A program made the translations under genes and the position numbers. This document shows, piece after piece, positions 25,003 through 51,957 of a stretch of DNA of 61,051 bases (position 1 is its first letter; each line of letters opens with the position of its first letter). The stretch spans positions 30,908,413 to 30,969,463 of the forward strand of contig NC_057746.1 in assembly GCF_004010195.1 (NCBI RefSeq), written 5' to 3'. The notes beneath the pieces were generated by a model, which saw only the letters and a program-made list of their open reading frames with translations, ran no database searches and was not told the origin of the DNA. This DNA comes from Chiloscyllium plagiosum (lineage: Eukaryota).

Positions 25003-25961
25003 CTGGAGAAATATCACTCCGTCTTTTTGTTCCAACTGTTTTTCCAACTTTGAGAGTTTCTCCTGAAAAGAATTTAAATTCTTTTGAATTTTGCCAAGAT
25101 TTTGCTGCATTGTTCTGAGAATGTTTTCCTCTTGTTCCCTGAGATCTCGGAGTAAACGCTGCTCTTTCTCAGTGAGAAACTGGTGCATTTTGGTGAACTC
25201 GGATTTGATGTGAGTCTGCAGATTTTGGGATTGAACCTACAAGAGCAAATATAGAAACAATCTGCTTCTGCAGTAAAACACAACAAAGGAAGGAATCAAA
25301 TTTGGAAGCTGAGCTCAGGGAAATTTTACCCGAATTTGGGAAATCTTCTGTTTCTGCTGCCGCTCCATTTCGAGAGCCGCCGATTTCTTCCCTGTGAGAG
25401 ATTCCAAGGAAGATTTCACCCGATCCTGGGATTGGGAGAGAAAATCAGAAAATAAAAGTATTAGACCATGAAAATGTGATAAAATAATCAGGGTATGGAA
25501 TCTGTTTCCTTTTACCTTGTAGATTCCAACCGCTTCTTCAATCGGGATGAAGCGGTGCTCCCTGTGTTCCCGGGAAACTACACAATTCACACAAATAAAT
25601 TTCTCGTCAGTTTCACAAAAAACCTTCAATTCTTCCTGATGTTCCTCACAGTGACGTTTACTTCCCTTCTCCTGCGGATTCAGATTTAACTTCCGAACTT
25701 TCTCAGATAGATTCGCTAAGGCCCGATTTCCTCTGAGGTTTCTGTCCGGAAACTCCTCTCTACATTCCGGGCAGGAGATTCTCTCCTGCTTTTCCCAGCT
25801 CTGGGTGATACAGGAGCGACAGAAGTTGTGTTCACACTCCAGTATAACCGGATCGGTGAAGAAATCCTGACAAACAGTATAACCGGATCGGTGAAGAAAT
25901 CCTGACAAATGGGACAGATTACCTCCTCGGTCAAACTCTGGAAATGCTGTTTGAAATCCAT
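25003..25961 (-). pseudogene. TRIM-C, duplicate of TRIM-A frameshifted by a 35-bp tandem duplication in the RING. Exons 25961-25516, 25425-25330, 25236-25003; downstream exons not seen
   Basis: cagtataaccggatcggtgaagaaatcctgacaaa twice (25840-25874, 25875-25909); exon 1 is 446 bp instead of 411. Confidence 0.85.
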
Positions 25962-34104: not shown

Positions 34105-34115
34105 GAAACTGAAAG
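34105..34115 (+). promoter_or_regulatory. IRF-E-like motif upstream of TRIM-D
   Basis: GAAACTGAAAG about 30 bp before the ATG, at the position homologous to the motif in A and C. Confidence 0.45.
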
Positions 34116-34146
34116 GGGTTTGAATCAGGAAGTGCTGAGGGTGAAC

Positions 34147-36055
34147 ATGGCTTTCAGACAGCAGGTCCTGAGTTTGACCGAGGAGGTAATCTGTCCCATT
34201 TGTCTGGATTTCTTCACCGATCCAGTTTCACTGGAGTGTGGACACAACTTCTGCCGCTCCTGTATCACCCAGAGCTGGGAAAAGCAGGAGATAAACTCCT
34301 GCCCGGAATGTAGACAGGAGTTTCCAGACAGATCCCTCAGAGGAAACCGGGCCTTAGCGAATCTGGCCGAGAAAGCTCGAACATTAAATCTGAATCCACA
34401 AGAGAAGGAAAGTAAACATCACTGTGAGGAACATCAGGAAGAACTGAAGCTGTTTTGTGAAACTGACAAGAAATTGATCTGTGTGATTTGTAGAGATTCC
34501 CGGGAACATAAATCTCACAACTTCATCCAGATCACAGAAGCTGTTGGAATCGACAAGGTAAAAGGAAACACATTCCATCCCCTGATTATTTTATCACATT
34601 TTATTAAAATTATTTTATTAAAATACTTTTATTTTCTGATTTTCTCTTCCAATCCCAGGATCGGGTGAAATCTTCCTTGGAATCTCTCACAGGGAAGAAA
34701 TCGGCGGCTCTAGAAATGGAGCGGCAGCAGAAACAGCAGATTTCAAAAATTCGGGTAAAGTCCCATGGAGATCAGCTTCAAAATTTGATTTGTTCATTTT
34801 TTATTGCAGAAACATCACAGAAAAGATCACAAAAGCGCTTCACAGGAGGCTCCCAAGCGCTGAGGATGTCACCTAGACAGGGGACGAAACGTCTGCAACA
34901 CAAATTCCCAGCTCGGCGAACAGAACCACAACAACGAGCACCCGAGCTACAAATCTTCTCACAAACTTTGCAGAAACATATTGTATTTATATTTCCCCTG
35001 ACAGGAGGAATCCAGCAGCCTGCAGACCCACATCAAATCCGAGTTCACTAAAATGCACCAGATGCTGTCTGAGAAAGAGCAGAGTTTACTCCGAGATCTC
35101 AGAGAACAAGAGGAAAACATTCTCAAACCAATGAAGCGAAATCTTTGTAAAATTCAAGATAATTTAAATTCTCTTCAGGAGAAACTCTCAACGTTGGAGA
35201 AACAGTTGGAACGAAAAGACAGAGTGGTATTTCTGAAGGTGAGGGATTATATTTCAGATTAGTTCAGTGACCGTGACTGTGAACAGTCCCAACATGATGC
35301 AGACACCCATCCTCCTTCATTCCCCCCGTCACTATCTCCCTCTGCTCCTTTCTCCCTCATGGTTTTCCCTACTTTTCTGTTTATACATTTGTGTCAATCA
35401 CACTGTGTGACAGTGGATTCCATACTTCCATCACTTTCTTGATAACAATATTTCTCCTGAAATCCCCATTGGGTTTATTTGTAATTAGATTATGTTCATA
35501 TATTCCAGTTTTCAGGTTCTTTAGAAATGGAAACATGTTGATTAAATCTATGGGATCAATCCCTTTCATAATTGCCAGCTTTCAAATCAGATGTTTACTT
35601 CAGTAAAATACATTAATGTTTCCTTCAATCCTTTACAGTTGTTTGAATTTTTTTGACCTTCTCCTGCTCTTCAATATCCTTTGTGTCACATCCTCTTTCT
35701 ATTCCATGTCTGAAATAATCAGACTTGACAATGCTCAGCAGGTTGTAACAATGTGAGTGCAATTGCTGCTTTTTAGATATGGACAGTCAGTCTCTGTCAA
35801 CTCAGATTGGTGTTCTGTTTGTTTCAGGAGGAAGCATCTCGGGAGAGGAGGTAGGACATGTACTTTACTGAAACTCAGTAAAATTACTCAGGGAAGTGTT
35901 TGTGATGAATTTACAATAATTATTTTGTTTTGTTTGCAGGATTAGTGATAATAGTAATGAGCTCTCACTAACAGATGGTGCCCTGTCTCCCGAAAATTTC
36001 AACATTGTTTTACCATTTCTTGTGTGGAACGAAATGCTGGAAACTATTAAACCTG
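34147..36055 (+). CDS. TRIM-D, RING/B-box/coiled-coil. Exons 34147-34557, 34659-34754, 35005-35238, 35828-35850, 35940-36055; B30.2 exon not seen
   Basis: Intact RING and B-box; 411/96/234/23/116-bp GT-AG exons open in phase. Confidence 0.88.
34816..34967 (+). mobile_element. Penelope-like short insertion (second family) in TRIM-D intron 2
   Basis: 12-bp TSD ttgcagaaacat (34804-34815, 34968-34979); contains a hammerhead motif; absent from paralogous introns. Confidence 0.8.
34857..34896 (+). ncRNA. Minimal type-I hammerhead ribozyme motif with intact core
   Basis: gcg-CTGAGGA-t-gtcacct[agac]agggga c-GAAAC-GTC-tgc: conserved core, 6-bp stem II with one mismatch, palindromic ACGT in place of stem III, 3-bp stem I. 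Confidence 0.7.
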
Positions 36056-36567
36056 GTAAAGCTCTGATAAGTTGCTTTGTTTTGATTCCTGTTTTAAAAT
36101 TTGGATTGTTATGTGTATAAATATTAATGACAGTATAATTAATGCTCAGTTATAACTAAAGCTGGATAATAATGGCTTTCACCGTCATTGATATCGACAC
36201 AGTATTTGGCTTGGAGCTCTCCAAAACTGAAGTCAACAGGAATTGGGGAAAACTCTCCACTGGTTGGAGTGAAACTGAGCACAAGGGAAGATGGCTGTGA
36301 GTGTTCAAGGTCAATCATCTCAACTCAAGGACATTTCTGTAGGAATTCTCAGGGGAGTGTTTTTGCCAGAAATCTTCAGCTGCTTCCTGAATACATTTTC
36401 CCCCATCCTGGGGAGGGGGATGGGTGGAGATATTCTCTAATAATAGGACAATATTCTGCCCCATTTGAGAAAGAAACTGACACCACAGTGAACCTGCACA
36501 GTTACTGCCTTTGCTGTTTGAATTCATGTATCGCTGGACATCGGAGTGTGTCTGGGAAAATTAAGTT

Positions 36568-38162
36568 AAAAATCACACAACATCAGGTTGTAGTCCAACA
36601 GGTTTATTTGGAAGCACACTAGTTTTTGGAGCAACGCTCCTTCATCAGGTGGTAGTGGAGGACACAATTGTAAGGCACAGAATTTATCGCAGAAGTTTAC
36701 AGTGTGATGTAACTGAAATTATACATTGAAAAATACCTTGATTGTCTGTTGAGTCTTTCATCTGTTCAAATACCATGATAGTTTCACTTCTTTCATGTGT
36801 AAATCGCAAAATCTTTTCTTAAAAGTTGCATTCTCAGGTTAAATGTAACAATTGGTGTTAGCTGGACAATATGTTGAAGGTGTTAGCCCCCTGTATTCTC
36901 TGTCTGTGCCATGATATTTAGATTGATTCTAAACTAAGTAGTGAGATAATAGAGTTTTACATGAATTCATGCAGTTTTTGAACAAAGTACAATGTTACTC
37001 TGCAAGTACAAATTCACTCCACAAAATACATATATATATGTGTGCATGTGGGTCTTTGTGTGTGTGTGTGTGTCTGGGTTGGGAGTGTCGTGAGTGTGAG
37101 AGAGAGTGTATAAGTGTACATATGTGAGTGTAGAGTGTCTTAAGTCTGTGAGGGGGTGCATGTGTGAGTGTGGGAGTGTGTGTGTGTGTGTGTGTGTCTG
37201 GGGTGATGGGTTGTGAGTGTCTGTGTGAGAGTGTATATGTGTGTGCGTGAGTGTAGAGTGGTTTAAGTCTCTGAGAGGATGCATGTGTGAGTGTGGGAAT
37301 GTGTGTGTCTGTAAGGGTGTGTGTGAGTGTCTATGTATATGTGTGTCCGTGTGTATGTGTGTATAGGAGTGCCTATGTGTGTGTGTNNNNNNNNNNNNNN
37401 NNNNNNNNNNNNNNNNNNNNNNNNNNNNNNNNNNNNNNNNNNNNNNNNNNNNNNNNNNNNNNNNNNNNNNNNNNNNNNNNNNNNNNNNNNNNNNNNNNNN
37501 NNNNNNNNNNNNNNNNNNNNNNNNNNNNNNNNNNNNNNNNNNNNNNNNNNNNNNNNNNNNNNNNNNNNNNNNNNNNNNNNNNNNNNNNNNNNNNNNNNNN
37601 NNNNNNNNNNNNNNNNNNNNNNNNNNNNNNNNNNNNNNNNNNNNNNNNNNNNNNNNNNNNNNNNNNNNNNNNNNNNNNNNNNNNNNNNNNNNNNNNNNNN
37701 NNNNNNNNNNNNNNNNNNNNNNNNNNNNNNNNNNNNNNNNNNNNNNNNNNNNNNNNNNNNNNNNNNNNNNNNNNNNNNNNNNNNNNNNNNNNNNNNNNNN
37801 NNNNNNNNNNNNNNNNNNNNNNNNNNNNNNNNNNNNNNNNNNNNNNNNNNNNNNNNNNNNNNNNNNNNNNNNNNNNNNNNNNNNNNNNNNNNNNNNNNNN
37901 NNNNNNNNNNNNNNNNNNNNNNNNNNNNNNNNNNNNNNNNNNNNNNNNNNNNNNNNNNNNNNNNNNNNNNNNNNNNNNNNNNNNNNNNNNNNNNNNNNNN
38001 NNNNCACTCACACATGCACCCCCTCACAGACTTAAGACACTCTACATATGCACACATATATACTCTCTGTCACACTCACGACCCCCCAACCCAGTTGCAT
38101 TCTCAGGTTAAATGTAACAATTGGTGTTAGCTAGACAATATGTTGAAGGTGTTAGCCCCCTG
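36568..38162 (-). mobile_element. Penelope-like element 3' region (third family) with a degenerate hammerhead at 36617-36651, (TG)n-rich tract and inverted segment
   Basis: Reverse strand reads cac-CTGATGA-aggagc-gtt-gctcc-aaaaacta-gtg; 38005-38090 is inverted relative to about 37075-37175; about 70-bp direct repeat at 36824-36893 and 38093-38162. Confidence 0.6.
37040..37386. repeat. Imperfect (TG)n microsatellite running into a gap
   Basis: Directly visible. Confidence 0.9.
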
Positions 38163-38169
38163 GTAATGC

Positions 38170-39705
38170 TTAGAGGGATGCCAGAGAAGGGGAAGCCTTT
38201 AAAAACCTACAGAGGATGACTGAAAAAACAACAAGGGAGAAGAAGTTGAAATATGAGGGTAAACGAACAAATCATATTGAAGAAGATTGCAAGAGTTTTT
38301 GTTTAGATGCATAACAGGTAAGAGAACAATAAGAGGGACATTGGACTGCTAGAAAATGAAGCTGGAGAAGTAACAATGACAAAGAAATGGGAATGGAACT
38401 GAATAGTGCTTTGTATCAGTCTTCACGGTGGAAGGCACCAGGAGTATACAAGAACTTCATGGGAATCGGGGGCAGAGATGAGTGGAAGTGCATGGTAAAA
38501 TGGGGCAAAGGTAGCATCAAGGGAAGGTCATGCCTGACAAATCTGCTAGAATTCTTTGAGGAGGTAATGAGCACCTGAGACAAAGGAGAGTCAATGGATG
38601 TTATCAATCTGGACTCCAGAAGGTCTTTAACAATGTGCCACACAGGAGACTGCTAAGTAAGAAAAGAGCCCGTGGTGTTTGAGGCAAGGTACCAGCATGG
38701 AGAGAAGCTTGGCTGTTTGGCAGGAGGCAGAGAGTGAGGATAAAAGGGTCTTTCTCAGGACAACAGCCAGTGACCAGAGGTGTTTCACAAACGTCAGTGT
38801 TGGGACCACAACTTTTCACTTTATAGATTAATGGTGTAGATGAAAGAACTGAGGGCATTCTGGCTAAATTTTCAGATGAGACAAAGTAGAGGGAGAGGTA
38901 ACACTGAGGAGGAGGGAGGCTGCAGAAGGATCTGGACAGGTTAGGAGAGTGGGCAAAGAAGTGGTAAATGGAATACAATATGGGAAAGTGTGAGGTCATG
39001 CACTTTGTAGGAAGAATAGAGACATAGACTATTTTCTAAATGGAGAGAAAATTCAGAAATCTGAAGTGCAAATGGACTTGGGTGTCCGGGTTCAGCATTC
39101 TCTTAAGGTAAACTTGCAGGTTGAGTTGGTAGTTAGGAAGGCAAATACAATATTGACATTTATTTCGAGAGGACTGAAATATGAAAGCAGGGATGTACTT
39201 CTGAGGCTTTATAAGGCTCTGATCAGACCACATTTGGAGTATTGTGAGCAATTTTGGGCCCCATGCTTCAGGAAGAATGTACTGGCCCTGGAGAAGGCCC
39301 AGAGGTTCACAAGAATGATCCCAGGAATTAAAGGCTTAAAATACGAGGAATGTTTGAGGACTCTGGCATATACCCAGTGGAGTTTAGAAAGATCGGGGGA
39401 ACCAATTTACAGAGTACTGAATGGCCAGGACAGAGTGGACATTGGGCGGCTGTTTCCATTGGTAGGAGAGATGATGACCCAAGGGCACAGCCTGGGAATA
39501 AAGGGAAGATCCTTTAGAATCTTCTTCAGCCAGAGAGTGGTGAATCTGTGGAATTCACTGCCACAGAAGGCTGTGGAGGCCACGTCATTGAGTCTATTTA
39601 AGATTGAGATAAATAGGTTCTTGGTTGTCAAGGGTATCAAACGTTACAGGGAGAAAGCAGGAAAATGGTGTAGAAAAACTTATGGAGCTGTGATTGAATG
39701 GTGGA
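38170..39705 (+). mobile_element. CR1-like LINE ORF2 remnant
   Basis: KGRSCLTNLLEFFEEV; RPHLEYCEQFWAP; FFSQRVVNLWNSLP. Confidence 0.88.
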
Positions 39706-39709
39706 AACA

Positions 39710-40814
39710 ACTCTCCCTCCTCACTCGGGGAGGGGGGACACGAACCCCACAGTCCATCGTAACTGGACCAGACCCCTCAGGGGCTGAGGTGGGTGGGTAA
39801 GGCCGCTCAGGACTTGTCCAAGCCACAAGAACAGGAGGGTGACAAGGTCTTGTCTGTGGTGACTGGGGACTGAGGTGGGGGTTAGTTACCCTGAGGGTAC
39901 CCTGAATGGTCATGATGAAGGAACAGGCCTCCTCCCTCCCTCCCAGGCCTTTATGTCAGGCACCACCCCCATCCTGATTGGGGAATGTTTTCCCAGATAC
40001 ATGGAGGGGTGACCCAGCAATGGGAGTGCAGCAGATTTCTGAACCGCTGTCCACCAGGGGGGCCTCAGATTTTCATCAACATTTTAAGAGAGTCTAGTAT
40101 AGTCCAAGACTTGGAGGTTCCTGCAACGGATCCTCCTGCTGTCGACCCTGGGGGTGAGATCGAGGCAGGGGTGTGCCTGCCCGGTTACCCTGGGACAACA
40201 CCTTTCACTCAATGTGGGGGATGGTGTCAGGGGTCAGAGGTGATGACCTGGAGGAGAACTGGGTGTTGGTCAGGAGCACCACTGAATTAGAAGTGGTGCT
40301 CGCGGATGAGGTCCCCCTCATTCCCATCGGAGAACTCCAGGAGATTTTCCAAGCGGTGCTCTGTCACTGAGACAGAGTCTGGTTGGAGGTAGATCGGTGG
40401 ACTTTTCTACTGTTTCTGGTCATGTCTCCCCGCCAGCTCTTGGTAACCGCGGGAATGGACAAGAACACAAAGAGGTTGTGCCAGGGATTCCTTTGCAGTG
40501 TCCTTAGGGAGTGGAAGGGAAAAAGCGTCTGTCCGCTACCCCACCCCTACCCCGCTCACTAAGTTGGGTTTCATTGTTTTAACTGGTGTGGTGGTACATA
40601 CTGCAGCCATGAAGACATCCATTGCCAACCTCAATGTTAACAGTAGCGGGAAGGCTCAGCACAGATTCTATATCCTCTCCCTCCTCAGGGAATGGAAGTA
40701 CACGGTGAGCCTCCTGCAGTAAACCCAGACCATTTCAGGAGATGAAGCTTCGTGGCTCCTGGACAGGCAGGGAAGGGTCTTCATGAGTCACCTGACCTCC
40801 AATTCTGATGGGTG
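39710..40814 (+). mobile_element. Probable Tx1-like LINE fragment (ORF1 end and start of the ORF2 endonuclease)
   Basis: MKTSIANLNVNSSGKAQHRF..LREWKYTVSLLQ resembles an APE N-terminus. Confidence 0.55.
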
Positions 40815-41944
40815 NNNNNNNNNNNNNNNNNNNNNNNNNNNNNNNNNNNNNNNNNNNNNNNNNNNNNNNNNNNNNNNNNNNNNNNNNNNNNNNNNNNNNN
40901 NNNNNNNNNNNNNNNNNNNNNNNNNNNNNNNNNNNNNNNNNNNNNNNNNNNNNNNNNNNNNNNNNNNNNNNNNNNNNNNNNNNNNNNNNNNNNNNNNNNN
41001 NNNNNNNNNNNNNNNNNNNNNNNNNNNNNNNNNNNNNNNNNNNNNNNNNNNNNNNNNNNNNNNNNNNNNNNNNNNNNNNNNNNNNNNNNNNNNNNNNNNN
41101 NNNNNNNNNNNNNNNNNNNNNNNNNNNNNNNNNNNNNNNNNNNNNNNNNNNNNNNNNNNNNNNNNNNNNNNNNNNNNNNNNNNNNNNNNNNNNNNNNNNN
41201 NNNNNNNNNNNNNNNNNNNNNNNNNNNNNNNNNNNNNNNNNNNNNNNNNNNNNNNNNNNNNNNNNNNNNNNNNNNNNNNNNNNNNNNNNNNNNNNNNNNN
41301 NNNNNNNNNNNNNNAATTGATGATAACAGCAGGGGTTTCAATCCCCAATCAGGCTGGTGTGGCTTTGTAATCTGACTCCTTGCCTGAACCACAATGGGTT
41401 GGGATTACATTCAGTCAGTCAGCTGAGGAAAAGTTTGGAACTGATGTTGCTTAGAGGGATGTGAAGCGTACTCTCATCTGGGGACCATCGGGAAGCAGGG
41501 GAAGGAGAGCATTGCATTTGCAATACTTCTCTAACAACACAGACTAAATTACAACTGAGAATTGAAGATGTGACTCAAATACTGGTGTGGGAGTATTTTA
41601 CACATGGGGCACAAACACCAGTGCTAGAGAAAAGTGGAACGGTACCATAAAGATAGGCTGCTCTGGAAACATACAAGAATTAGAGTTCTGGTGATTCTAA
41701 ACTAAAAAAATGAGTGCAAGGCTTTATAGATGAGGAAATTTAAAAAGGTAACAAGGAAGAATCGTGCAATCACGTGGAGCAGTGACACAGATAATGATAG
41801 AGAAAGGAAAGGAGTTTTGAGAAGGATGGTTCTCATGGTTATGGAAGGAAGTTCAGAATAGCATGAAACAGAAAGAAATATTGTAAAAATCTGTAAAAAA
41901 TTAATGGTTGCTCAACAGATTGGGCAGAAATCAAGAAATCAGGC

Positions 41945-42262
41945 AGTTAGATAGGCTGGACAGCGAGAGCCTTTTTCCTCAGATGGTGATGGCCAGCATG
42001 AGGGGATAAAGCTTTAAATTGAGGGGAGACAGATATCAGAGGTAGTTTCTTTATTCAGAAAGTAGTAGGGGTGTGGAAAGCATTGCGCGCAACAATAGCG
42101 GACTCCCCAACTTTAAAGGTATTTAAATAGTCATTGGATAGGCACATGGATGAAAATGGAATCGTGTCAATTAAATGGGCTTCAGATTGGTTTCACAGGT
42201 CAGCGCAACATCGAGGGCTGAAGGGCCTGTACTGTGCTGTAATGTTCTGTGTTCTATGTTCT
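41945..42262 (+). mobile_element. CR1-like 3' end
   Basis: Tail gggctgaagggcctgtactgtgctgtaatgttct..gttctatgttct. Confidence 0.75.
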
Positions 42263-42976
42263 TTTAAACAGCAAAAAATGACTGTAAATCATTATTAAAT
42301 GTAAATATTTTCATCTGTTAACTATGAAAACTTAAAAAGGAAAATAATCAGTTGTAAGCAGAGAATGAGAGAAGGCTAGTTCATAAAGTTAAAACATAGT
42401 GAGAGTATATATAAGCATTGGAATAAGAACACTCTAACTGAAATTAGTGATAGTCCTCTGGAGAGTGAGTCCTGGAAATTGACAATGGAAACAAAGGAAT
42501 TATGGAAGCATTGTCAATATTTTATGTGTAATTTCACAGTAGAAGACTTTGAAAACTTCCCAAAGATAACTGAAAGTCAAAAGATGATGGTGAGGTAAGA
42601 ACTAAAAACAATCATCGACATGAGAGAAAAGATGTAAGAGAAACTATTTTGCCTAAAAGATAACAAATCCTCAGGGTTAGTTGGCTGCAATCTTCGGTTT
42701 TAAACTAATAATGACAGCGATAACAGAAGTGTTAGCTAGAGTCATCAGAATCTCTGGAGATTCTGGGAGAGTTGAGTGGATTGAGAAATAGCAAATGTTA
42801 TGAAAGTTCATAATACTTCATTGTTACCTGAGAACCTGGATTCTAAAGTGGAAGAAAGAATGATTTTAATCTTTTAGTCCTGAGAAGTATTTTTTCTTTC
42901 AAGGCGAAAAAGTTATTCTAAACTTTTAATTCAAAACAGTATTTGTCAGAAGTCATGACTTTCTTTTGTTAAATGA

Positions 42977-43585
42977 TGTGATGATGATGCTGCTTTAACA
43001 AGGTGATGTTGTTCTTGGTTTTTCTTTTAGAAAGGTTGTAAAAGACACAAACTCTGAAAACTCTGGGTTTGTATGGGATTTCGGGCCAATTTGATTATAG
43101 CAAAGAGATACTGCTTCAGGCAAAAGGCTTTCAAGTTTAAAAAAAAGCACTTGTACAATGAAAGGGGAGCAGCCAATGCTCCCAGCTCAGCTTTACTCTG
43201 GTTTGGTTTGAATTTAGCACAGTAGTGTTTTGAAGCTGCTGGACCCAAAGAAGCAAGTCCATGCTGATCCCCCTCTCTCTGACATCTTTCCTGTGTTTGA
43301 TATTACCTTTTGTGTCAAAGGTGTTTTTAGGGATTGTTGCAGGTATTGGGAACAACATCATGATCTGTTGGGTTTTCAGAGAGGTTAAGTTATTCGGTAC
43401 TCTGTTCTCTTTTAATTGTGTTTCATTCAGTAATCTTGTAAATAAATTGAGATTTTTGAAACCCCAGTGGGTTGCCAGCTGCTCACTCCCGTAATATCTG
43501 CATTATACTTGCTTAAAACAACTAGCAGTGTTAAGGTTTGGGCCACTTTCTTGAAATGTTTTGAGGTCTGGCCGAGTCCAAAACA
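42977..43585 (+). repeat. Solo LTR, about 609 bp
   Basis: TG...CA termini, 4-bp TSD ATGA on both sides, internal aataaa at about 43440. Confidence 0.6.
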
Positions 43586-44019
43586 ATGAACAGCAAGTCA
43601 CCCAGGGATATAACTGTCAATGTGCTTGTTGACTTGATTTTTATGATCATCAGAGAAGAAAAGAGAGGGAGAGCCTTAAGCCAGTTGATATAGGGGTAAG
43701 AGGCCCATGAGAGCAGAGGTGCTGTAATTAGAGGCAGTCGGGACTGAAGAGAAGTCATGTTATGTTTTAAAGTTTATAAGAAATAAGGCTCCAGAAGCAA
43801 AAACTGGGATATCAGAGAGGGAGGCATCCCACATGGCTGTTGAAGACACAACATTATGGAAGCAATGTTAAGTAATAGTGATCTGAGTTAGTAATTTATT
43901 CCAAGGACCTTACGGAAAGACATTCACTGAAGAAAATAGCACCTAGTGACTGTACAGATATTTACCAACAGGAAACCATTTACAGCCATGACAACTGAGC
44001 AAGAATCTTTAACATGGGG

Positions 44020-45040
44020 AGAAGGGTGAATCTTCATTGGAGTTTGAGTGGCTGTGAGAGTTTTTCAGGCATAAATTGGTTGAATCTTTCTGCTTTTTGT
44101 AGTGGGATCTTCCAAGAGATATTAGCACTTGCTTTGTATAATATAGTTCACGTTATTCTTCTGTACTGTTTTGCTATAAGTACATTGGGAGCCTTCTGTG
44201 AACATATTCAGTGACTGGTCTCCATGGTAAACAGAAGACAACTTATGATCCATCTCGGTAGTTTCACGCTGATACATTGTCTCATATCATCAGACGGCAT
44301 CATAACAACATTAGGGCTATTTGTGAGATCAAAAATCTTTTAAGTTAAGAGTAATCTATGATGTGGAGAGAATATGTGGAGGGAAAGGAGGTATAGTCAG
44401 GAGAGTTTTGTAAAGTGTATTTCATGGATTGGAATTTTGAAAAAATGCTGTGACAGTTTCTGAAACTTTCTGGCATTGGAAAAGGCAATTGTAGATTACT
44501 TGAAATTATTAACTAAGGTTGCACTGAGAGGCTGAGTAAAAATATTAGAAACAGAAGTAAACACAGGATTTCAGAAGGATGATATATTTAAAAACATTTA
44601 CAGACAAAAAAAATGAACATGTAAAATGAATGTATCACTTCAAGAATTAGAAAAGATTCAGTCTGAAGTGAGAAAAAGAAACATTTAAATTGCAGGTAAA
44701 ATAGAAGAAAAGACACAGGGACATGGAAAGAGAAATGGAAAGAGAGAAAATGACAAAGGAAAAACAATGAAATGTGGAAGACTTGAACTTTAAGCAGAAA
44801 GAGAGAGAGAGAGAGAAAGACAGACAACTTAGAACCTGCCTACAGTGTGGCAATCAGGGTGAATATTCATTGGATTTTGAGTGGCTGTGAGGATTTTCCA
44901 GGGATAAAGTGGTTGAACCTTCCTTTCTATTGTTTATAATGAGACTTTTCAAACAATTTTATCTCTTGCCTTGTGTAATATAGTTTGTGTTATTCTGTAC
45001 ACTAAATGTTAGTGTTCTTTTGCAATAGGTACATTGGTGT
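44020..45040 (+). mobile_element. Possible internally deleted LTR element: diverged direct repeats (about 44020-44220 and 44857-45040) around a purine-rich gag-like stretch
   Basis: Both repeats start agggtgaat.ttcattgga.tttgagtggctgtgag. Confidence 0.4.
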
Positions 45041-45049
45041 TTTGTGGGA

Positions 45050-46030
45050 AGTATGAGGTTGTGCAGTTTAGCAGGAAGAATAGAGGAACTAAATAATATT
45101 GAAATACCAAAAGACTGCAGAAAGCTACAGCACAGAGGAATTTGGATGTCGTTGTGCATAAATCATAAAAATATAGTTTAAATATTAAGCAGGTAATAGG
45201 AAGTAAAAGGAATGTTGGTCACTGTTTGAAAGGGAATGGAGTATACAAAATGGAAGGTTTTGCTGAAAACATACAAGGTACATTACACAGCACCCAGAAT
45301 ATTGTCAGCAGTACTGGTTCCCTTACATCAGTTTTGTAATTTATGGGTGACACCAACAACATCAGCTCCAATTGCTGCAATGATTGAGATTACCATGAAG
45401 AAGTTTCTTTGTAAACCTCTTCCCTTGCCGATTGCATGGTGGCTCTCATGTTAAACCACCACCTGTCATCTCTGCTCAGTGGGAGAGCAGCCCTATGATT
45501 TCATAAGGACACGGTGACGTTACCTTTACTTGTTTTTAACCTAAGGAAAGATGTAATAGCATTAGACACAGTCCAGAAACATTTCACCTGTTCCCAGGTT
45601 TGCAGGGATTTTATAATGAGGAGAGGTGAAATGTTGCTGTACTTCTTGGTGTTTCGAAGAGTGAGCGGAGACCCTGCTGAAACATATTATATTCATAGAA
45701 GGCGCAACAATATAGATAGAGCATAGAACAGAGAGCGGAGATGGTTTTCCCTGGTGGGAAAGTCTCAACCCAGAGGACACAAACTCAGAATAAGGTGTGG
45801 TCCATTAAAACAGAGATGAAGAGGAACTTCTTCTCTCAGATGGTAGTGAATCTGTGGAGTTGTTTGCCACAGGGAATATTCAAGGATGAGATAGACAGAT
45901 TTATAATCAATAAGAGCATCAAGGGATTTGGGGAAAAGTCAAGAAAATAGCATTCATGATTATCAATCAGCCATGATCACACTGAATGGAGAATAGACTG
46001 GACAGGCTGAATGGTCTTTTTTCTGTTGTT
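45050..46030 (+). mobile_element. Old CR1-like fragment with an interrupting insertion
   Basis: KTEMKRNFFSQMVVNLW. Confidence 0.7.
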
Positions 46031-47020
46031 CCATATTATGGTCAAAAAGAGGGTGCTGAAAGATGTTTTACCTCATTTCAAAAGGTGGCTAAGAGATGTT
46101 TGGGCCTTCATGTTAGAATGGGTCCAAATAGGCAAAGCTATGAATGTGTACAGTGGCCTGTTCAGTACAGCAGTCTGCAGATTATTAAACTGCTTAATGG
46201 GCACAAAGCTGATGAATTTGTCTCTGAAGAATATTAATTTAAGAATGAAAGCCAAACAGATATTTATAGAATTGTAAGAGAAAAGAAATGTGATGGAATC
46301 AGTGGATTTGATCACTGAAGCTAGAGAAAACATGTGAGAATGTGAGAGAACTCATGATTTGGGAACAAATCTGAAATAGAGTTCTGCTTACTCTTAAGAT
46401 TTATCCAGATGAGCATCAATTATCAAGAATCCAAGAAGCACAGGTTCTAGTGGATAGCTATAATATCTGACAGGCAGTTTCACTTCGCGAAATGGTCCTG
46501 TGGGAATCCACAAGGAAACTGGAGGAACAGAAAAACTGGTGATGGAAAACTTAGTGATGTTTTGGGGAACAAACAGAAAATGTCAAAAATACTGAAAAGG
46601 AAATTCTAGAATCTGAAATTGAAACAAAAATGTGTCAATTATAATAAAACTGAACAGGCTTAACCTCAATGCTGGAACTGAAATGGGACAATGATTGCAG
46701 AATCAGGAATATAGAAGGAATCCCAGGAAAGATGTTCTCAGGAAAGGAGATGGCCATTAAATTTATTCCAGTGATACAGATGGAGTGTATTCACTGAGAG
46801 TCTGCTCGAAGGGAGAAATGAGGTAGGACAGTCAAGAAAACTCTTTCTCGTACATTGTAAAAGAAAAAGACCATTGGGGTCCGTGAATTTTAATATCAAA
46901 ATGAGAGCTATGTCACTGTACTGTCCACATACACCTGAACCACCACCAGCAGCAGCAAGTGTCACAGACTGCAGGTCCCAGCCGGCAGGAGGCAGTGTGG
47001 GAGATTATGGGGTGGATGTG

Positions 47021-50000
47021 TCAGTGACCTTTCAGCCCGCAGATTGTCAGGGGGCTAGAATTCTTTCCGCTGTCGTGTGGCCCCGGGTGGAACAGTGGGA
47101 AGAGCCTCTCAGTGAAAGTGTGGCTGAAAGTGTGGAGATGGGACATGGTGTCCGCATTGTAAAATGACACCTGGCCCCCCTCATAGTCCAGGAACACGCC
47201 GACCTTCCGGGGATTCCCACTCGGGGACAGCGCAGTCACTGGATCAGTCCCAGCCAGGTACATCTGGTCATGTCTCAGCCACACAGTCCAGTATCCAGAC
47301 TGGGGACACAGATCGATTCTCCCCTTCCTCACGGCATTCCCTCGGGTCACTCCCACACGCCACCAGGTCTTCCCCCCCACCTCCACCTCCCAGTAATGTC
47401 TCCCTGATGTGAAGCTCTCCGATGCCAGCACACAGAGCCAGCGGTCAAACCTGTCCGGGGAGTCAGGGAGCTCCTGCAGTGTGTTGCCGACTCTCACACT
47501 GGTCCGGTCCTCAGACAGGATCAGCCGGGGGTGCGCTGTGTTCGGATCCAGAGTCAGACAGGCTGGAGCTGGGGGGGGGGGGGGGATATGTATAAATAAC
47601 ACAGTCAGCCATCGAGTTCCTCTCTGTCAGTCTCCCAACCGCCTCCCTCGGGAGATTCCCGGGAATCCCAGGGTTTCTGAAGGGATCCAGGTTCTGTCAT
47701 TAGCTGTGGGTGTGCGCTCAGTCCCCACACATCACCTTCTCTTCTGGCACTAACTCCGGATTCTGCAAAGTTGTAGCAGATTTCACAAACTACTGGTTAC
47801 CTGGGGACAAGCTCCAACCCTCCATCATCACAATGTGATGCTGTCATTTTGTATCGGCATCAACGCTGGAAGATGCAGCATTGTACAAGAACACTGACGG
47901 TTAGATACGCGGGGGATAGACACTGGGGAATATTAAAAATAATAAGCTCCGTTCATATTAAAATATAATTAATATTGCACACCAAGACTGAAACTGCAGG
48001 CTTTTAGCAGGAAAACGAACCATCGAAGCAGGGAAACAGGTGAGGGAGGAATATTGGATCAGACAGAAATTGCTGGAGAAATTCAGTCGGTCTGTCTGGC
48101 AGCGTCAGTGGAGAGAAAGCAAGGCCTGAGTTTCAAATGCAGCGAGGGAAAGGTGATATTTAGACCGATCATAGGGCGGTGCTGAATGGGTCGGTCCAGA
48201 CGGAGCTGAGAGAGTGAAAGTTAGACAGAGGGATGGTTGCTAGTAACCAGGGAAGATGGAAAGCTGACAGTAGGGACATGTGCGGGTTGTTCTGAAAGGA
48301 GCTCGTGTCATAGCGGTGTGGGGTGAGTCCCAACAGGCTGCAGAATCCCCTGTTGGGCAGTTCTTCCGGCTGGCGCTGAGCTTCACTGGAATACTGCTGT
48401 AAACCCGAGACAGAGGTATTGGTCAGGGAACAGGCTGGGTGGTGAATTGGCAGGCCAACTGGGAGCTCAGGCGCTTTTCTGTGGATTGAAGTAGGTGTTC
48501 TGAGAATGGGTCACCCAGTTTAAGCTTCCTTTCCCCAATGTAGAGGAGACATCCCTGATGAAGGGCTCATAGCGGAAACATCGACTCTCCTGCTCCTCGG
48601 ATGCTGCCTGCCCTGCTGTGCTTTTCCAGCGCCACACTTTAACACAATGTAGAGGGGTCATTGTGAGCAGCGAGTGCGGGAGACCAGCGGTAAAACGCTG
48701 CTTCACCTGGAAGGTATACAGTATTTGTGTCCTTGGACACTGAGGAGGGAGGAGGTAGATGGAAAATGTGAGGCTCACTACTGGGCACACTGCTGTCCTT
48801 TAATAGTGAGAGACTGGGGCAGTTCAATCCAGAGCCATGGTTTAAATTCCCACTTTGGAGCGTCACTCTTGCTCTATTATATTTGGGGGGAAAAGGCGCC
48901 ATAGGAAACCTCCATCATTTCGTTTATTGTTTAGTTGCTAAGACTTTTCATTCACTGTGTAATTAATCAAACTTTCCCATCACCTGACTTCACTGTAAAG
49001 GAGGTCATTGTAAAATGGCAAACTGAGAAAACATAATTTTTTTAAAAAATCAATAGACAACCGAGCTGTCAGATAAAACATTTCTCCCTAAAACTGCCCG
49101 GAAACTGCCCCTGCGTCTGTCTGTGCAGAAAGTGCTCCCCCCTAGTGATGGAGATGGGACATGGGGCTCACATTGTAAAATGATACCTGTCCGCCCTCAC
49201 AGTCCGGCGATACCCCGATCTTCCGGGGTCCAGAAATGTCCCCGAAATCTCTCTGAACCCGTGTCCTTGGTATTCCGATCTATCACACGGAATACTGATC
49301 TCCCCAGTCTGCTGCAACCCCCAGGCCCCTGCGTTAAAAACACCCCGTCCGTCCAGAACACCGGATTCTCAGGACCCTCAGCTTCCCATTCCCCCGTGTT
49401 TCCCACTTCTTTGTGCTCTCCAATTCCCTGCATTTACCGTTTCTTTGCGGTCCCCATTTCCAGGAGTTTTCCAGGTCCTTGTGCTTCCCACTCCCCCGTG
49501 ATTCCTAGTTCCATGAGCTTCCCAATTCCCTGTGTTTACCATTCTCCAGTGGTTCCCAGTTCCCTGTATTTCCCAGTCCCCCGTGATTCCCCCGTGGTCA
49601 CCTGCCCCCTGGGGTTCCCAGTTCCTTGTATTTCCCACTCCTCTGTGGTCCCAGCTCTCTGCGTTTCCTACCAGTTCCTTGAGCTTCCCAGTTCCCTGCC
49701 CTGTGATTCCCCAGACCCTTGTGGCTCCCATTTCCCTTGGTTTCCCAGATCCTGTGTTTGTCAGTGCCCTGTGATTCTTACTCCCCTGTATTTCCCAGTT
49801 CTCATATTTCCTACTCCCATGTCATTCCCAGATCCTGTAATTCCCCGTTCCCCGTGTTGCCCATTTACCTGTAATTCCCAGTCCCCTGTGTTTCACACGC
49901 CCAGTGATTCCCAGCTCCTTGTGTTTCCCAGTTCCCTGTAATTCCCAATCGCCTGTGTTGCTCAGCCCCCTGTCACCCTCAGCCCCAGCGGAGTGACCTC

Positions 50001-51957
50001 CCAGTCATTCAAGGGTTACACAAAGTGACAGCGTATGATGCAGGTCAGGGAACAATCCCAGATCATCATCTCTAAATTCCAAAAACGGGACCAGCTCAAA
50101 AGGACTAGGGGAGAGGATAAAGAAGACACCAGCGGAAGAGAAGACCAAACGAACAAAGTCAGAAAGACAAGCCGCTGACGAAAAGGAGTGTGGAGATAAA
50201 CTGAACTAAAATGAAACTGGGCTGAGCGAGTGGAAGCCAGAGCAGATCCCACAGGGGGGAGGGAGGGAAACAGCTGGCATGGGGAACCTGGGAAGGGAGA
50301 GAAAAAAATACTGTGGACTTCTGGTTCTATTCAGGAGAATGTCGCCATCCTTTCAAAAGATGCTCTACGATAGAATTGGGCGGTCTGTCTTGCATAGAAA
50401 TACGATAACATTTCGGAGAAAGGAATCAACCTGAGATTTACCAGGATTAATGACAGCGACCATTTCTCTCCACACTGTATACTGTAATGGTCCGTGGAAT
50501 TTACCGATGGACAGAGCGGGGTCTGCGCTTGGCAGTCCATTATCCCGGTGAGTCACCCTGCACACAACAAAGGCCTTGTTATGGATTGACCAGAACCATT
50601 TCCTTAAATTATTTTACGAAACCGTGGAAAATTGAACTAGGAAGTATGCCTTACCTCCCCTTTCGACAGGATTCCTCCTGAAATAAATCAAACACAAATC
50701 TGAGATTGCAGACACGGACTCTCTAAATCCTGACACCAACCTTCTACACCCAGATTCGGAACCTTGAACAGCCCGGTGATAATATCGCTAAGCCTTCACC
50801 TCCCCAGGAGCTCTGAATAATGGGCAAAATTGATGATTTATATCAGTCCCGTTGATCTCCCTGCCCTTTTTTAACTTCAATTTCCCACCTGATATAGAAT
50901 CGGTCCCGCTTTCTGGTTCACTTGCTTCTGCAAAGTTGAGAGTTTCTCCTCAATGGAATTTAAATTCTCCTGTATTTTCCAAAGATTCTCCAATAACGTT
51001 TTGAGAATTCGCTCCTCTTCTTCCCTGAGATCTCGGAGTAAAGTCTGTTCTTTCTCAGTGAGAATCTGGTGCATTTTAGTGAACTCTGATTCGATGTGGC
51101 TCTGCAGGCAGTTCGCCTGTTCCTGTGGAACGAGATGTGAAACATCACTAATGTCCCACCTTAAAGTGAACAAAACTAACCCAGATCCCAGAGAATCAGC
51201 TCAGGGAGATTTTACCCGAATCTGGGAAATCTGCTGTTTCTGCTCCCGCTCCATTTCTAGAGCTGCTGATTTTTTATCTGTGAGAGAATCCAAGGAAGAT
51301 TTCACCCGATCCTGGGATTGGGAGAGAAAATCAGAAAATAAAAGTGTTAGACCATGAAAATGTGATGAAATAATCAGAGGATGGAATGTGTTTCCTTTTA
51401 CCTTGTAGATTCCAACAGCTTCTGTAACCGGGATGAAGCGGTGCTCCCTGTGTTCCCGGGAATCTCTACAAATCACACAATTCAATTTCTTGTCAGTTTC
51501 GCAAAACAGCTTAAATAATCAGGGGATGGAATCTGTTTCCTTTTACCTTGTAGAGTCCAACAGCTTCTTTAACCGGGATGAAGCGGTGCTCCCTGTGTTC
51601 CCGGGAATCTCTACAAATCACACAATTCAATTTCTTGTCAGTTTCGCAAAACAGCTTCAGTTCTTCCTGATGTTCCTCACAGTGATGTTTACTTTCCTTC
51701 TCTTGCAGATTCGGATTTAATTTTCGAGCTTTCTCGGCCAGATTCGCTAAGACCCGATTTACCCTGAGCTTTCTGTTCGGAAACTCCTGTCTACATTCCG
51801 GGCAGGAGTTTCTCTCCTGCTTTTCCCAGCTCTGGGTGGTACAGGAGCGGCAGAAGTTGTGTCCACAATCCAGTGAAACCGGATCGGTGAAGAAATCCAG
51901 ACAAATGGGACAGATTACCTCCTGGATCCAACTCTCTCGTTGCTGTCTGGAATCCAT
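47021..51957 (-). CDS. TRIM-E, full-length RING/B-box/coiled-coil/PRY-SPRY (B30.2) protein, predicted 475 aa (TRIM39/TRIM27-like). Exons 51957-51547, 51311-51216, 51122-50889, 50677-50655, 50557-50442, 47568-47021
   Basis: 411+96+234+23+116+548=1428 nt in phase; PRY-SPRY motifs [42 protein letters not shown]. Confidence 0.92.
48060..48790 (-). mobile_element. Old Penelope-like element 3' part (GIY-YIG remnant) in TRIM-E intron 5
   Basis: Reverse strand cctctacattgggga (LYIG) and FQVKQRFT; terminus acagaaattgctggagaaa..ctggcagc. Confidence 0.55.
48547..48644 (+). mobile_element. Nested Penelope-like short insertion with a degenerate hammerhead
   Basis: ctgatga-agggctcatagcg-gaaac-atc; 11-bp TSD caatgtagagg (48536-48546, 48645-48655). 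Confidence 0.75.
49140..49380 (-). pseudogene. Degenerate second SPRY exon remnant
   Basis: Reverse translation [27 protein letters not shown] vs [27 protein letters not shown] in TRIM-E. Confidence 0.75.
49381..49975. repeat. Degenerate pyrimidine-rich minisatellite (ttcccagttccctgtg-like units)
   Basis: Directly visible. Confidence 0.8.
51368..51657. repeat. 145-bp tandem duplication of the B-box 3' end and 5' splice site of TRIM-E
   Basis: Copies 51368-51512 and 51513-51657 differ at about 4 positions. Confidence 0.9.

Follow-up and report, generated by a model that had tools for sequence, protein, structure and literature searches.

A probable passenger hammerhead motif in a Penelope-type insertion within intron 2 of TRIM-D

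Does a hammerhead motif that lies in an intron cut the pre-mRNA of the gene that carries it? The stretch of Chiloscyllium plagiosum DNA analyzed here (the window, 61,051 nt, to which all positions refer) raises this question at TRIM-D, whose second intron (numbered from the first coding exon) contains a 152-bp insertion at 34816 to 34967 with a hammerhead motif on the sense strand, the gene itself being on the + strand. The initial annotation of this DNA had suggested that cleavage at the motif tunes TRIM-D. Features of the locus are collected in Table 1.

Table 1. Features of TRIM-D and of the insertion in its second intron
Feature	Position	Strand	Basis or remark
TRIM-D coding exons 1 to 5 (34147–34557, 34659–34754, 35005–35238, 35828–35850, 35940–36055)	34147–36055	+	open frame
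Host intron 2 of TRIM-D	34755–35004	+	250 nt; 86 nt in closest paralogue
First target-site duplication copy, TTGCAGAAACAT	34804–34815	+	single copy at the closest paralogue's empty site
5'-truncated 3' end of a Penelope/Poseidon-type retroelement	34816–34967	+	family match ~34819 through 34970
Junction bases CAC, absent from family form	34816–34818	+	copy-alignment columns
Final codons and TAG stop (34874–34876) of RT/GIY-YIG frame	34819–34876	+	long copies end in TEDVT and stop
Predicted competing 7-bp hairpin, 34834–34840 with 34855–34861	34834–34861	+	RNA folding
Minimal type-I hammerhead, predicted cut after C34893	34857–34896	+	motif match, fold
Hammerhead stem I	34857–34859 with 34894–34896	+	
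Hammerhead core CUGAGGA	34860–34866	+	
Hammerhead stem II	34868–34885	+	bulged U34867 precedes; GAAA 34886–34889
ATG and first 35 codons of next ORF copy, start inside hammerhead	34866–34970	+	L099 frame
~36-nt "tail" between two alternative 3' ends	34935–34970	+	opposite-strand partner ends
Second target-site duplication copy	34968–34979	+	initial three bases are the element's own end

TRIM-D, its paralogues and the insertion site

TRIM-D is a RING/B-box/coiled-coil gene whose first exon carries the RING and B-box domains. One reading of the locus takes TRIM-D for a silent or truncated duplicate with no output for the insertion to affect: the + strand from 36056 to 47000 yielded no PRY-SPRY exon, although two downstream assembly gaps (618 and 500 N) could hide such an exon, and exons 1 to 5 keep both an open frame and their GT-AG sites. 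This reading, on which the RNA reads described below also bear, is possible but unlikely, and it is compatible with the insertion being a mere passenger. The sole full PRY-SPRY in the window (47024 to 47626, − strand) belongs to TRIM-E; none was seen in the window for TRIM-B or TRIM-C, for which gaps may hide them. Elsewhere in the window, exon 1 of TRIM-C (25761 to 25955, − strand) changes reading frame close to where the RING begins (a frameshift or an assembly error), and the end of TRIM-E exon 1 (its B-box part, 51402 to 51563, − strand) occurs as a tandem duplicate.

The left flank of the insertion, used as a query, returned 63 candidate loci; 40 of these were scored and 30 fetched, including the TRIM-D locus itself. 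The insertion was matched in none of the 29 other fetched TRIM loci (the best 30 of 63), which agrees with the initial annotation that it is absent from the paralogous introns; neither its position nor its sequence is conserved among them. Intron 2 measures 86 to 94 nt in the 28 other loci in which it could be measured, 9 of which contain the 12-mer of the flanking repeat exactly once. The closest paralogue (C37:30803353) is 94 to 95% identical over the gene, with intron flanks matching at 60/61 and 36/37 positions, and represents an empty site with one copy of the repeat. Since the site is empty in a paralogue that is ~95% identical, the insertion would be younger than that duplication, the latest TRIM duplication found; precise loss of the insertion from the closest paralogue is an unlikely alternative.

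Two candidates for an allelic empty site were considered and rejected. Contig C64537 (L092) is 97.7% identical over 34967 to 35477 and has an empty-type junction, but ~610 nt are missing upstream, where it is 94.8% identical; it looks like another broken paralogue and thus shows no polymorphism. In this 2.1-kb contig, the absent stretch begins in the middle of exon 1, takes in exon 2, and ends at the T-run of intron 2, with the junction at ~511 to 516. The other candidates, empty-site contigs from sequencing run X17, have intervening letters that resemble those of other paralogues.

The 12-bp direct repeats that flank the insertion, TTGCAGAAACAT, are 100% identical. However, the TTG at 34968 to 34970 belongs to the end of the element and is common to at least 27 of the 29 other fetched copies, so the target-site duplication is either 12 bp with a 3-base microhomology or 9 bp. 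At the 5' junction, the CAC at 34816 to 34818, together with the preceding AT and the following AGAA, repeats the element's own ATCACAGAA, and it likely reflects a short slip.

The element family

Querying the assembly with the 152-bp insertion gave 588 first-look candidates (40 scored, 30 fetched), of which the best 30 are 96 to 100% identical to it. These best 30 of 588 copies share the 3' end and vary in 5' extent, with 152 to 624 nt shared. Sequence upstream in the longer copies encodes a GIY-YIG endonuclease (EN) and, further up, a reverse transcriptase (RT): Pfam RVT_1 is matched in L035 (E 6e-9) and GIY-YIG in L044 (E 0.002; at 18.8 bits a weak match, below the curated cut-off of 22.6), and in L060, both regions lie within one open frame. 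Translations inspected by eye contain VVYKIPCKDCTKHYIG, with CxxC between GIY and YIG, and after it two motifs that bear histidines; this is the CCHH pattern, with its cysteine pair between GIY and YIG, that characterizes EN+ PLEs in the available text of PMC8557442. By eye, the RT-EN linkers of L044, L056, and L060 contain no extra CX2-5CxxC zinc finger, the feature that marks Neptune/Nematis in the same text, and the family therefore points to the Penelope/Poseidon EN+ PLEs, a clade assignment made by domain features. At the sequence level, the RT and GIY-YIG regions of the longer copies show the Penelope origin of the insertion and bear out the initial annotation in ascribing the motif to the minimal, dimer-type hammerheads of such elements.

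This coding content also excludes two other identities. A stand-alone 152-bp SINE or retrozyme was rejected because other copies run upstream into endonuclease and RT coding sequence. Likewise, a non-LTR retrozyme (a fixed-length, nonautonomous tandem unit) does not fit a single copy here and, among the best 30, shared extents of 152 to 624 nt that reach into EN coding sequence. Animal non-LTR retrozymes, as presented in the accessible part of a 2026 preprint (bioRxiv 10.64898/2026.07.22.740005), are similar in being short hammerhead-bearing sequences that are related to Penelope pLTRs and often occur as monomers; unlike them, the insertion is not in a tandem array, and the fetched copies show a continuous range of 5' extents up to RT-coding length, as in truncated autonomous elements.

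The hammerhead sits where two reading frames of the element meet. The stop codon of the RT/GIY-YIG frame falls within stem II, and the ATG at 34866 to 34868 overlaps A9-U-G10.1; in L099, the frame opened by this ATG continues into the RT N terminus (with one stop in L099). Among the 21 loci examined, L099 alone has a same-strand hammerhead upstream of RT. In most long copies, the hammerhead is found at the ORF end, and L054 contains a direct partial tandem. At many loci, copies are accompanied by opposite-strand partners that mostly end at insert positions 113 to 124, often 118 to 120; these inverted partners stop ~35 nt short of the main end, leaving a one-sided tail. The window copy has the tail and lacks the inverted partner. 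Loose ends among the RNA reads and contigs aligned to the insertion lie at 34933 to 34935 and at 34970, matching the limits of the tail.

The nearest described relative in these respects is the Poseidon element PAc of Anolis carolinensis (Frangieh et al. 2024, PMC11167929). Both combine RT with a C-terminal GIY-YIG and an AT-rich target, in both, the base of hammerhead stem II is where the ORF begins (the cut lies ~25 nt past the start codon here and 26 in PAc), and two alternative 3' ends delimit a tail of 30 to 40 nt. The 3' ends differ in place: counted from the start of the ORF, they lie at ~69 and 105 nt here, unlike the main site of PAc at 111 to 118. Moreover, the window copy is a 150-nt stub that lacks coding capacity, and the family is known here solely as sequence.

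Taken with the known mechanism of such elements, these features suggest that the insertion arose by target-primed reverse transcription, which is the likely route. The GIY-YIG endonuclease of the element would have nicked a T-rich intronic site, reverse transcription would have been primed at the outer 3' end (34970) with three bases of microhomology and halted after ~150 nt, and repair would have duplicated 9 to 12 bp of target. The hammerhead, which spans the stop codon of one ORF copy as well as the ATG that opens the following one, would simply have been carried along: its retention in so short a stub would follow from its place 75 to 110 nt from the 34970 end.

The hammerhead motif and its predicted folding

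The elements named in the initial annotation could be located exactly as it had described them: CTGAGGA at 34860 to 34866, GAAAC at 34886 to 34890, GTC at 34891 to 34893, the ACGT palindrome at 34889 to 34892, a C at 34893, and around them a 152-bp sense insertion flanked by target-site duplications. Every base of the conserved core (CUGANGA, GAAA, and NUH) is intact. The motif has the extra base (U34867) between 9 and 10.1, the pair G34868–C34885 (G10.1–C11.1), and the ACGU palindrome at 15.2 to 16.2 that mark minimal hammerheads (min-HHRs). Stem II contains an A/G mismatch and is directly preceded by the bulged U34867. Stem III is absent, A15.1-C15.2 leading straight into G16.2-U16.1, and a lone copy would therefore need a partner RNA or element protein. 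Stem I of the window copy is 3 bp long, with G-U as its first pair. The gcg/ugc stem I reported in the initial annotation is indeed that of the window copy, but it is not the form of the family, which has A at 34859.

This anatomy corresponds to that of the metazoan PLE pLTR min-HHRs, as described in the available text of Cervera and De la Peña 2014 (PMC4209133): type-I topology with a short helix I and a long helix II, an unpaired base between 9 and 10.1, G10.1–C11.1, a palindromic 15.2 to 16.2, and no helix III, in copies that are mostly single, dispersed, derived from truncated elements, and present in thousands per genome. The helix I of 3 bp, with a G-U start in the window copy, differs from the 4 to 5 bp of Schistosoma min-HHRs in the same text, which names neither the present family nor its host among its min-HHR cases. 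There, single Schistosoma min-HHRs showed no detectable cleavage, and dimers and trimers cleaved at low levels.

Rfam returned no match at gathering score anywhere in the window and, in 34500 to 35300, only two unrelated sub-threshold matches; its models probably overlook a motif that has no stem III, so the miss would not count against a hammerhead. The core with the spacing of the window copy had 7,240 genomic matches versus 8 for the reversed control, and the motif is therefore not a chance occurrence. An exact 37-nt motif was found 3,738 times (1,805 + 1,933) in the 3.56-Gb assembly versus none for its control, and the core is intact in 52 of the 76 distinct copies that were aligned, a sample that favors close matches. 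With exact and core motifs in the thousands, an intact core is, as far as these counts indicate, the normal state of the family.

The window holds no second copy of the family and, hence, no dimer partner in cis. Two hammerhead-like motifs, at 48555 (+ strand) and 53706 (− strand), were considered as cis partners and rejected, as they sit outside the TRIM-D exons found. Both are of the form CUGANGA...GAAA (48555 to 48597, + strand, antisense inside TRIM-E; and 53706 to 53662, − strand, upstream of the first coding exon of TRIM-E). They share similar downstream sequence, do not resemble the family studied here, and are likely the ends of a second hammerhead-bearing repeat family.

Folding predictions, which omit protein and Mg2+, set the window copy apart from most of its family. 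The G34859 prefix occurs in 31 of the 3,738 exact 37-nt motifs, the family majority having A, and this G completes a predicted hairpin that captures the 5' strand of stem I together with core bases C3 and U4. The competing hairpin has a predicted probability (P) of 0.98, in the insert alone and in intron 2. Across copies, its median P is 0.98 in 8 G copies versus 0.013 in 65 A copies. For growing transcripts, P is 0.94 at prefix 34865 (that is, as soon as 34861 has been made) and 0.60 to 0.98 across eight prefixes. In the context of intron 2, stem I has a predicted P of 0.000 and stem II of 0.62. The failure of helices I and II to form in these predictions lowers the case for an active ribozyme and leaves that for a hammerhead motif as it was.

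Forcing the catalytic fold is predicted to cost 9.6 to 10.0 kcal/mol in the window copy, 9.4 to 10.7 in 4 other G copies, and 6.1 to 6.3 in 8 A copies, which puts the window copy at a predicted disadvantage of ~3.4 kcal/mol relative to most of the family. The A>G change at 34859 would thus destabilize stem I and tie up the core in the competing hairpin. However, most A copies are likewise given a low stem I probability (median P, 0.006), so the predictions rank copies and do not prove inactivity. Selection for a disabling G34859 was considered and rejected: two substitutions in the 149 nt of one copy cannot show selection. In all 8 G copies folded, A>G at 34859 is predicted to switch to the core-blocking hairpin, forming with the A copies a natural on/off pair.

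RNA reads, possible effects on TRIM-D, and published systems

RNA evidence, which is weak, came from 4 of 24 sequencing runs (X19 gave 200 reads, X20 none). All X19 reads on the insertion carry family letters (A34859 in 48/48 and G34832 in 29/29) and, hence, none derives from the window copy; these reads continue into the element or into foreign flanks. Those over 34838 to 34960 are in a ratio of ~8:1 for the hammerhead strand and pass through the predicted cut, a ratio that may reflect A-rich priming. The exon reads of X19 carry letters that are not those of TRIM-D (G at 34326 in 9/9, A at 35068 in 5/5, and G at 35103 in 7/7) and so come from paralogues or related species, which gives some support to a silent TRIM-D. 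Set against this, two X17 contigs match 34112 to 34197 and 35104 to 35239 without difference, making expression of TRIM-D possible. The joint of exons 2 and 3 is covered by one X19 read and one X17 contig, which fit the empty paralogues equally well. No read or contig in the 4 runs is assignable to the window copy or to TRIM-D's own splice junction.

Could the insertion nevertheless alter TRIM-D by changing its splicing, with catalysis playing no part? It has roughly tripled the intron relative to the 28 other loci and has moved the T-rich tract away from the acceptor, leaving the upstream TTGCAG (34804 to 34809) behind that tract; as read from the sequence, use of the AG of this hexamer would include an in-frame TGA at 34861 to 34863. 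On the other hand, both splice sites and the last 37 nt of the intron are kept (36/37 identical to the paralogue), 9 paralogous loci have the same AG at their empty site, and no joint to 34810 appears among the reads, though those reads are not from TRIM-D. We consider such an effect improbable, but should the insertion act on TRIM-D in some way, a change in splicing would be a more likely route than cleavage.

Cleavage of a fraction of TRIM-D pre-mRNA, lowering its output, would call for help in trans, either from element RNA pairing through ACGU or from ORF protein. The intact core and the sense orientation are in its favor, as is the presence of family RNA in the poly(A) run X19, mostly of the hammerhead strand (depth, 79 versus 7 over 34879 to 34919). 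Precedents exist as well: the PAc hammerhead did not cleave without ORF protein, and protein-assisted cleavage was shown (PMC11167929), while the HDV-like intronic ribozyme of CPEB3, which is functionally conserved in mammals and has a half-life of 2 to 3 min, can modulate its host mRNA (available text of PMC10919898). Yet the trans helix is just 4 bp, with a predicted −1.7 kcal/mol, the competing hairpin is predicted to form before the remainder of the motif is transcribed, and the insertion occurs in a single paralogue and shows no trace of conservation. Nor do X19 read ends pile up at the cut site, depth being flat at 64 to 67 reads over 34890 to 34894 on the main strand (weak evidence, as these are other family copies in a fragmented library); for PAc too, no RNA-seq ends were found at the cut site (PMC11167929). 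We judge trans-assisted cleavage very improbable. Its extension, a young and accidental link between transposon and TRIM output in which expression of the Penelope family would be the condition for any cutting of TRIM-D pre-mRNA, is very improbable too.

The window motif resembles the CPEB3 ribozyme and the amniote intronic hammerheads (accessible portions of PMC10919898 and PMC6765202) in that a motif of the self-cleaving type lies within an intron in sense orientation. It differs from both, the latter titled ultraconserved, in being multicopy, limited to one paralogue, devoid of stem III, and predicted to misfold. In reporter work (Dye 2006 and Fong 2009, as summarized in the available text of PMC2995048), introns with slow hammerheads continued to be spliced even when cut, and a fast HDV ribozyme prevented splicing. 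Our searches for a shark or TRIM case, by title and abstract opening, found no publication on this locus or family, although the kind of element is already well described.

Weighing these readings, we conclude with a probability of roughly 0.87 that the insertion is a 5'-truncated Penelope/Poseidon-type end whose hammerhead is likely an inert passenger and that TRIM-D pre-mRNA is left uncut. The hammerhead would be slow by class, present in one paralogue only, and a predicted misfolder. Against this conclusion stand the core bases, all of which are intact, and the place of the predicted cut: the intron has 250 nt and the 3' splice site is only 111 nt away, so any cleavage would fall at a sensitive place near the acceptor. 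A regulatory role in TRIM-D, as advanced in the initial annotation, is unsupported, given thousands of motifs in the genome, a lone copy here, its predicted misfolding, and its restriction to one paralogue.

A further point against the passenger conclusion comes from Xenopus: according to the available text of the 2026 preprint (10.64898/2026.07.22.740005), ~43% of retrozyme copies overlap introns, and introns hold fewer of these related retrozymes than expected; this deficit allows that some intronic copies may be mildly harmful.

As found, the insertion matters little, being one more truncated Penelope copy among thousands. The filled intron and the empty 86-nt intron of a near-identical paralogue form a clean test pair, to which the natural A/G variant can be added. 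If trans-activated cleavage were true, expression of the transposon could affect host pre-mRNAs through thousands of intronic copies in sense orientation, and it would bear on whether Penelope hammerheads ever cleave inside cells.
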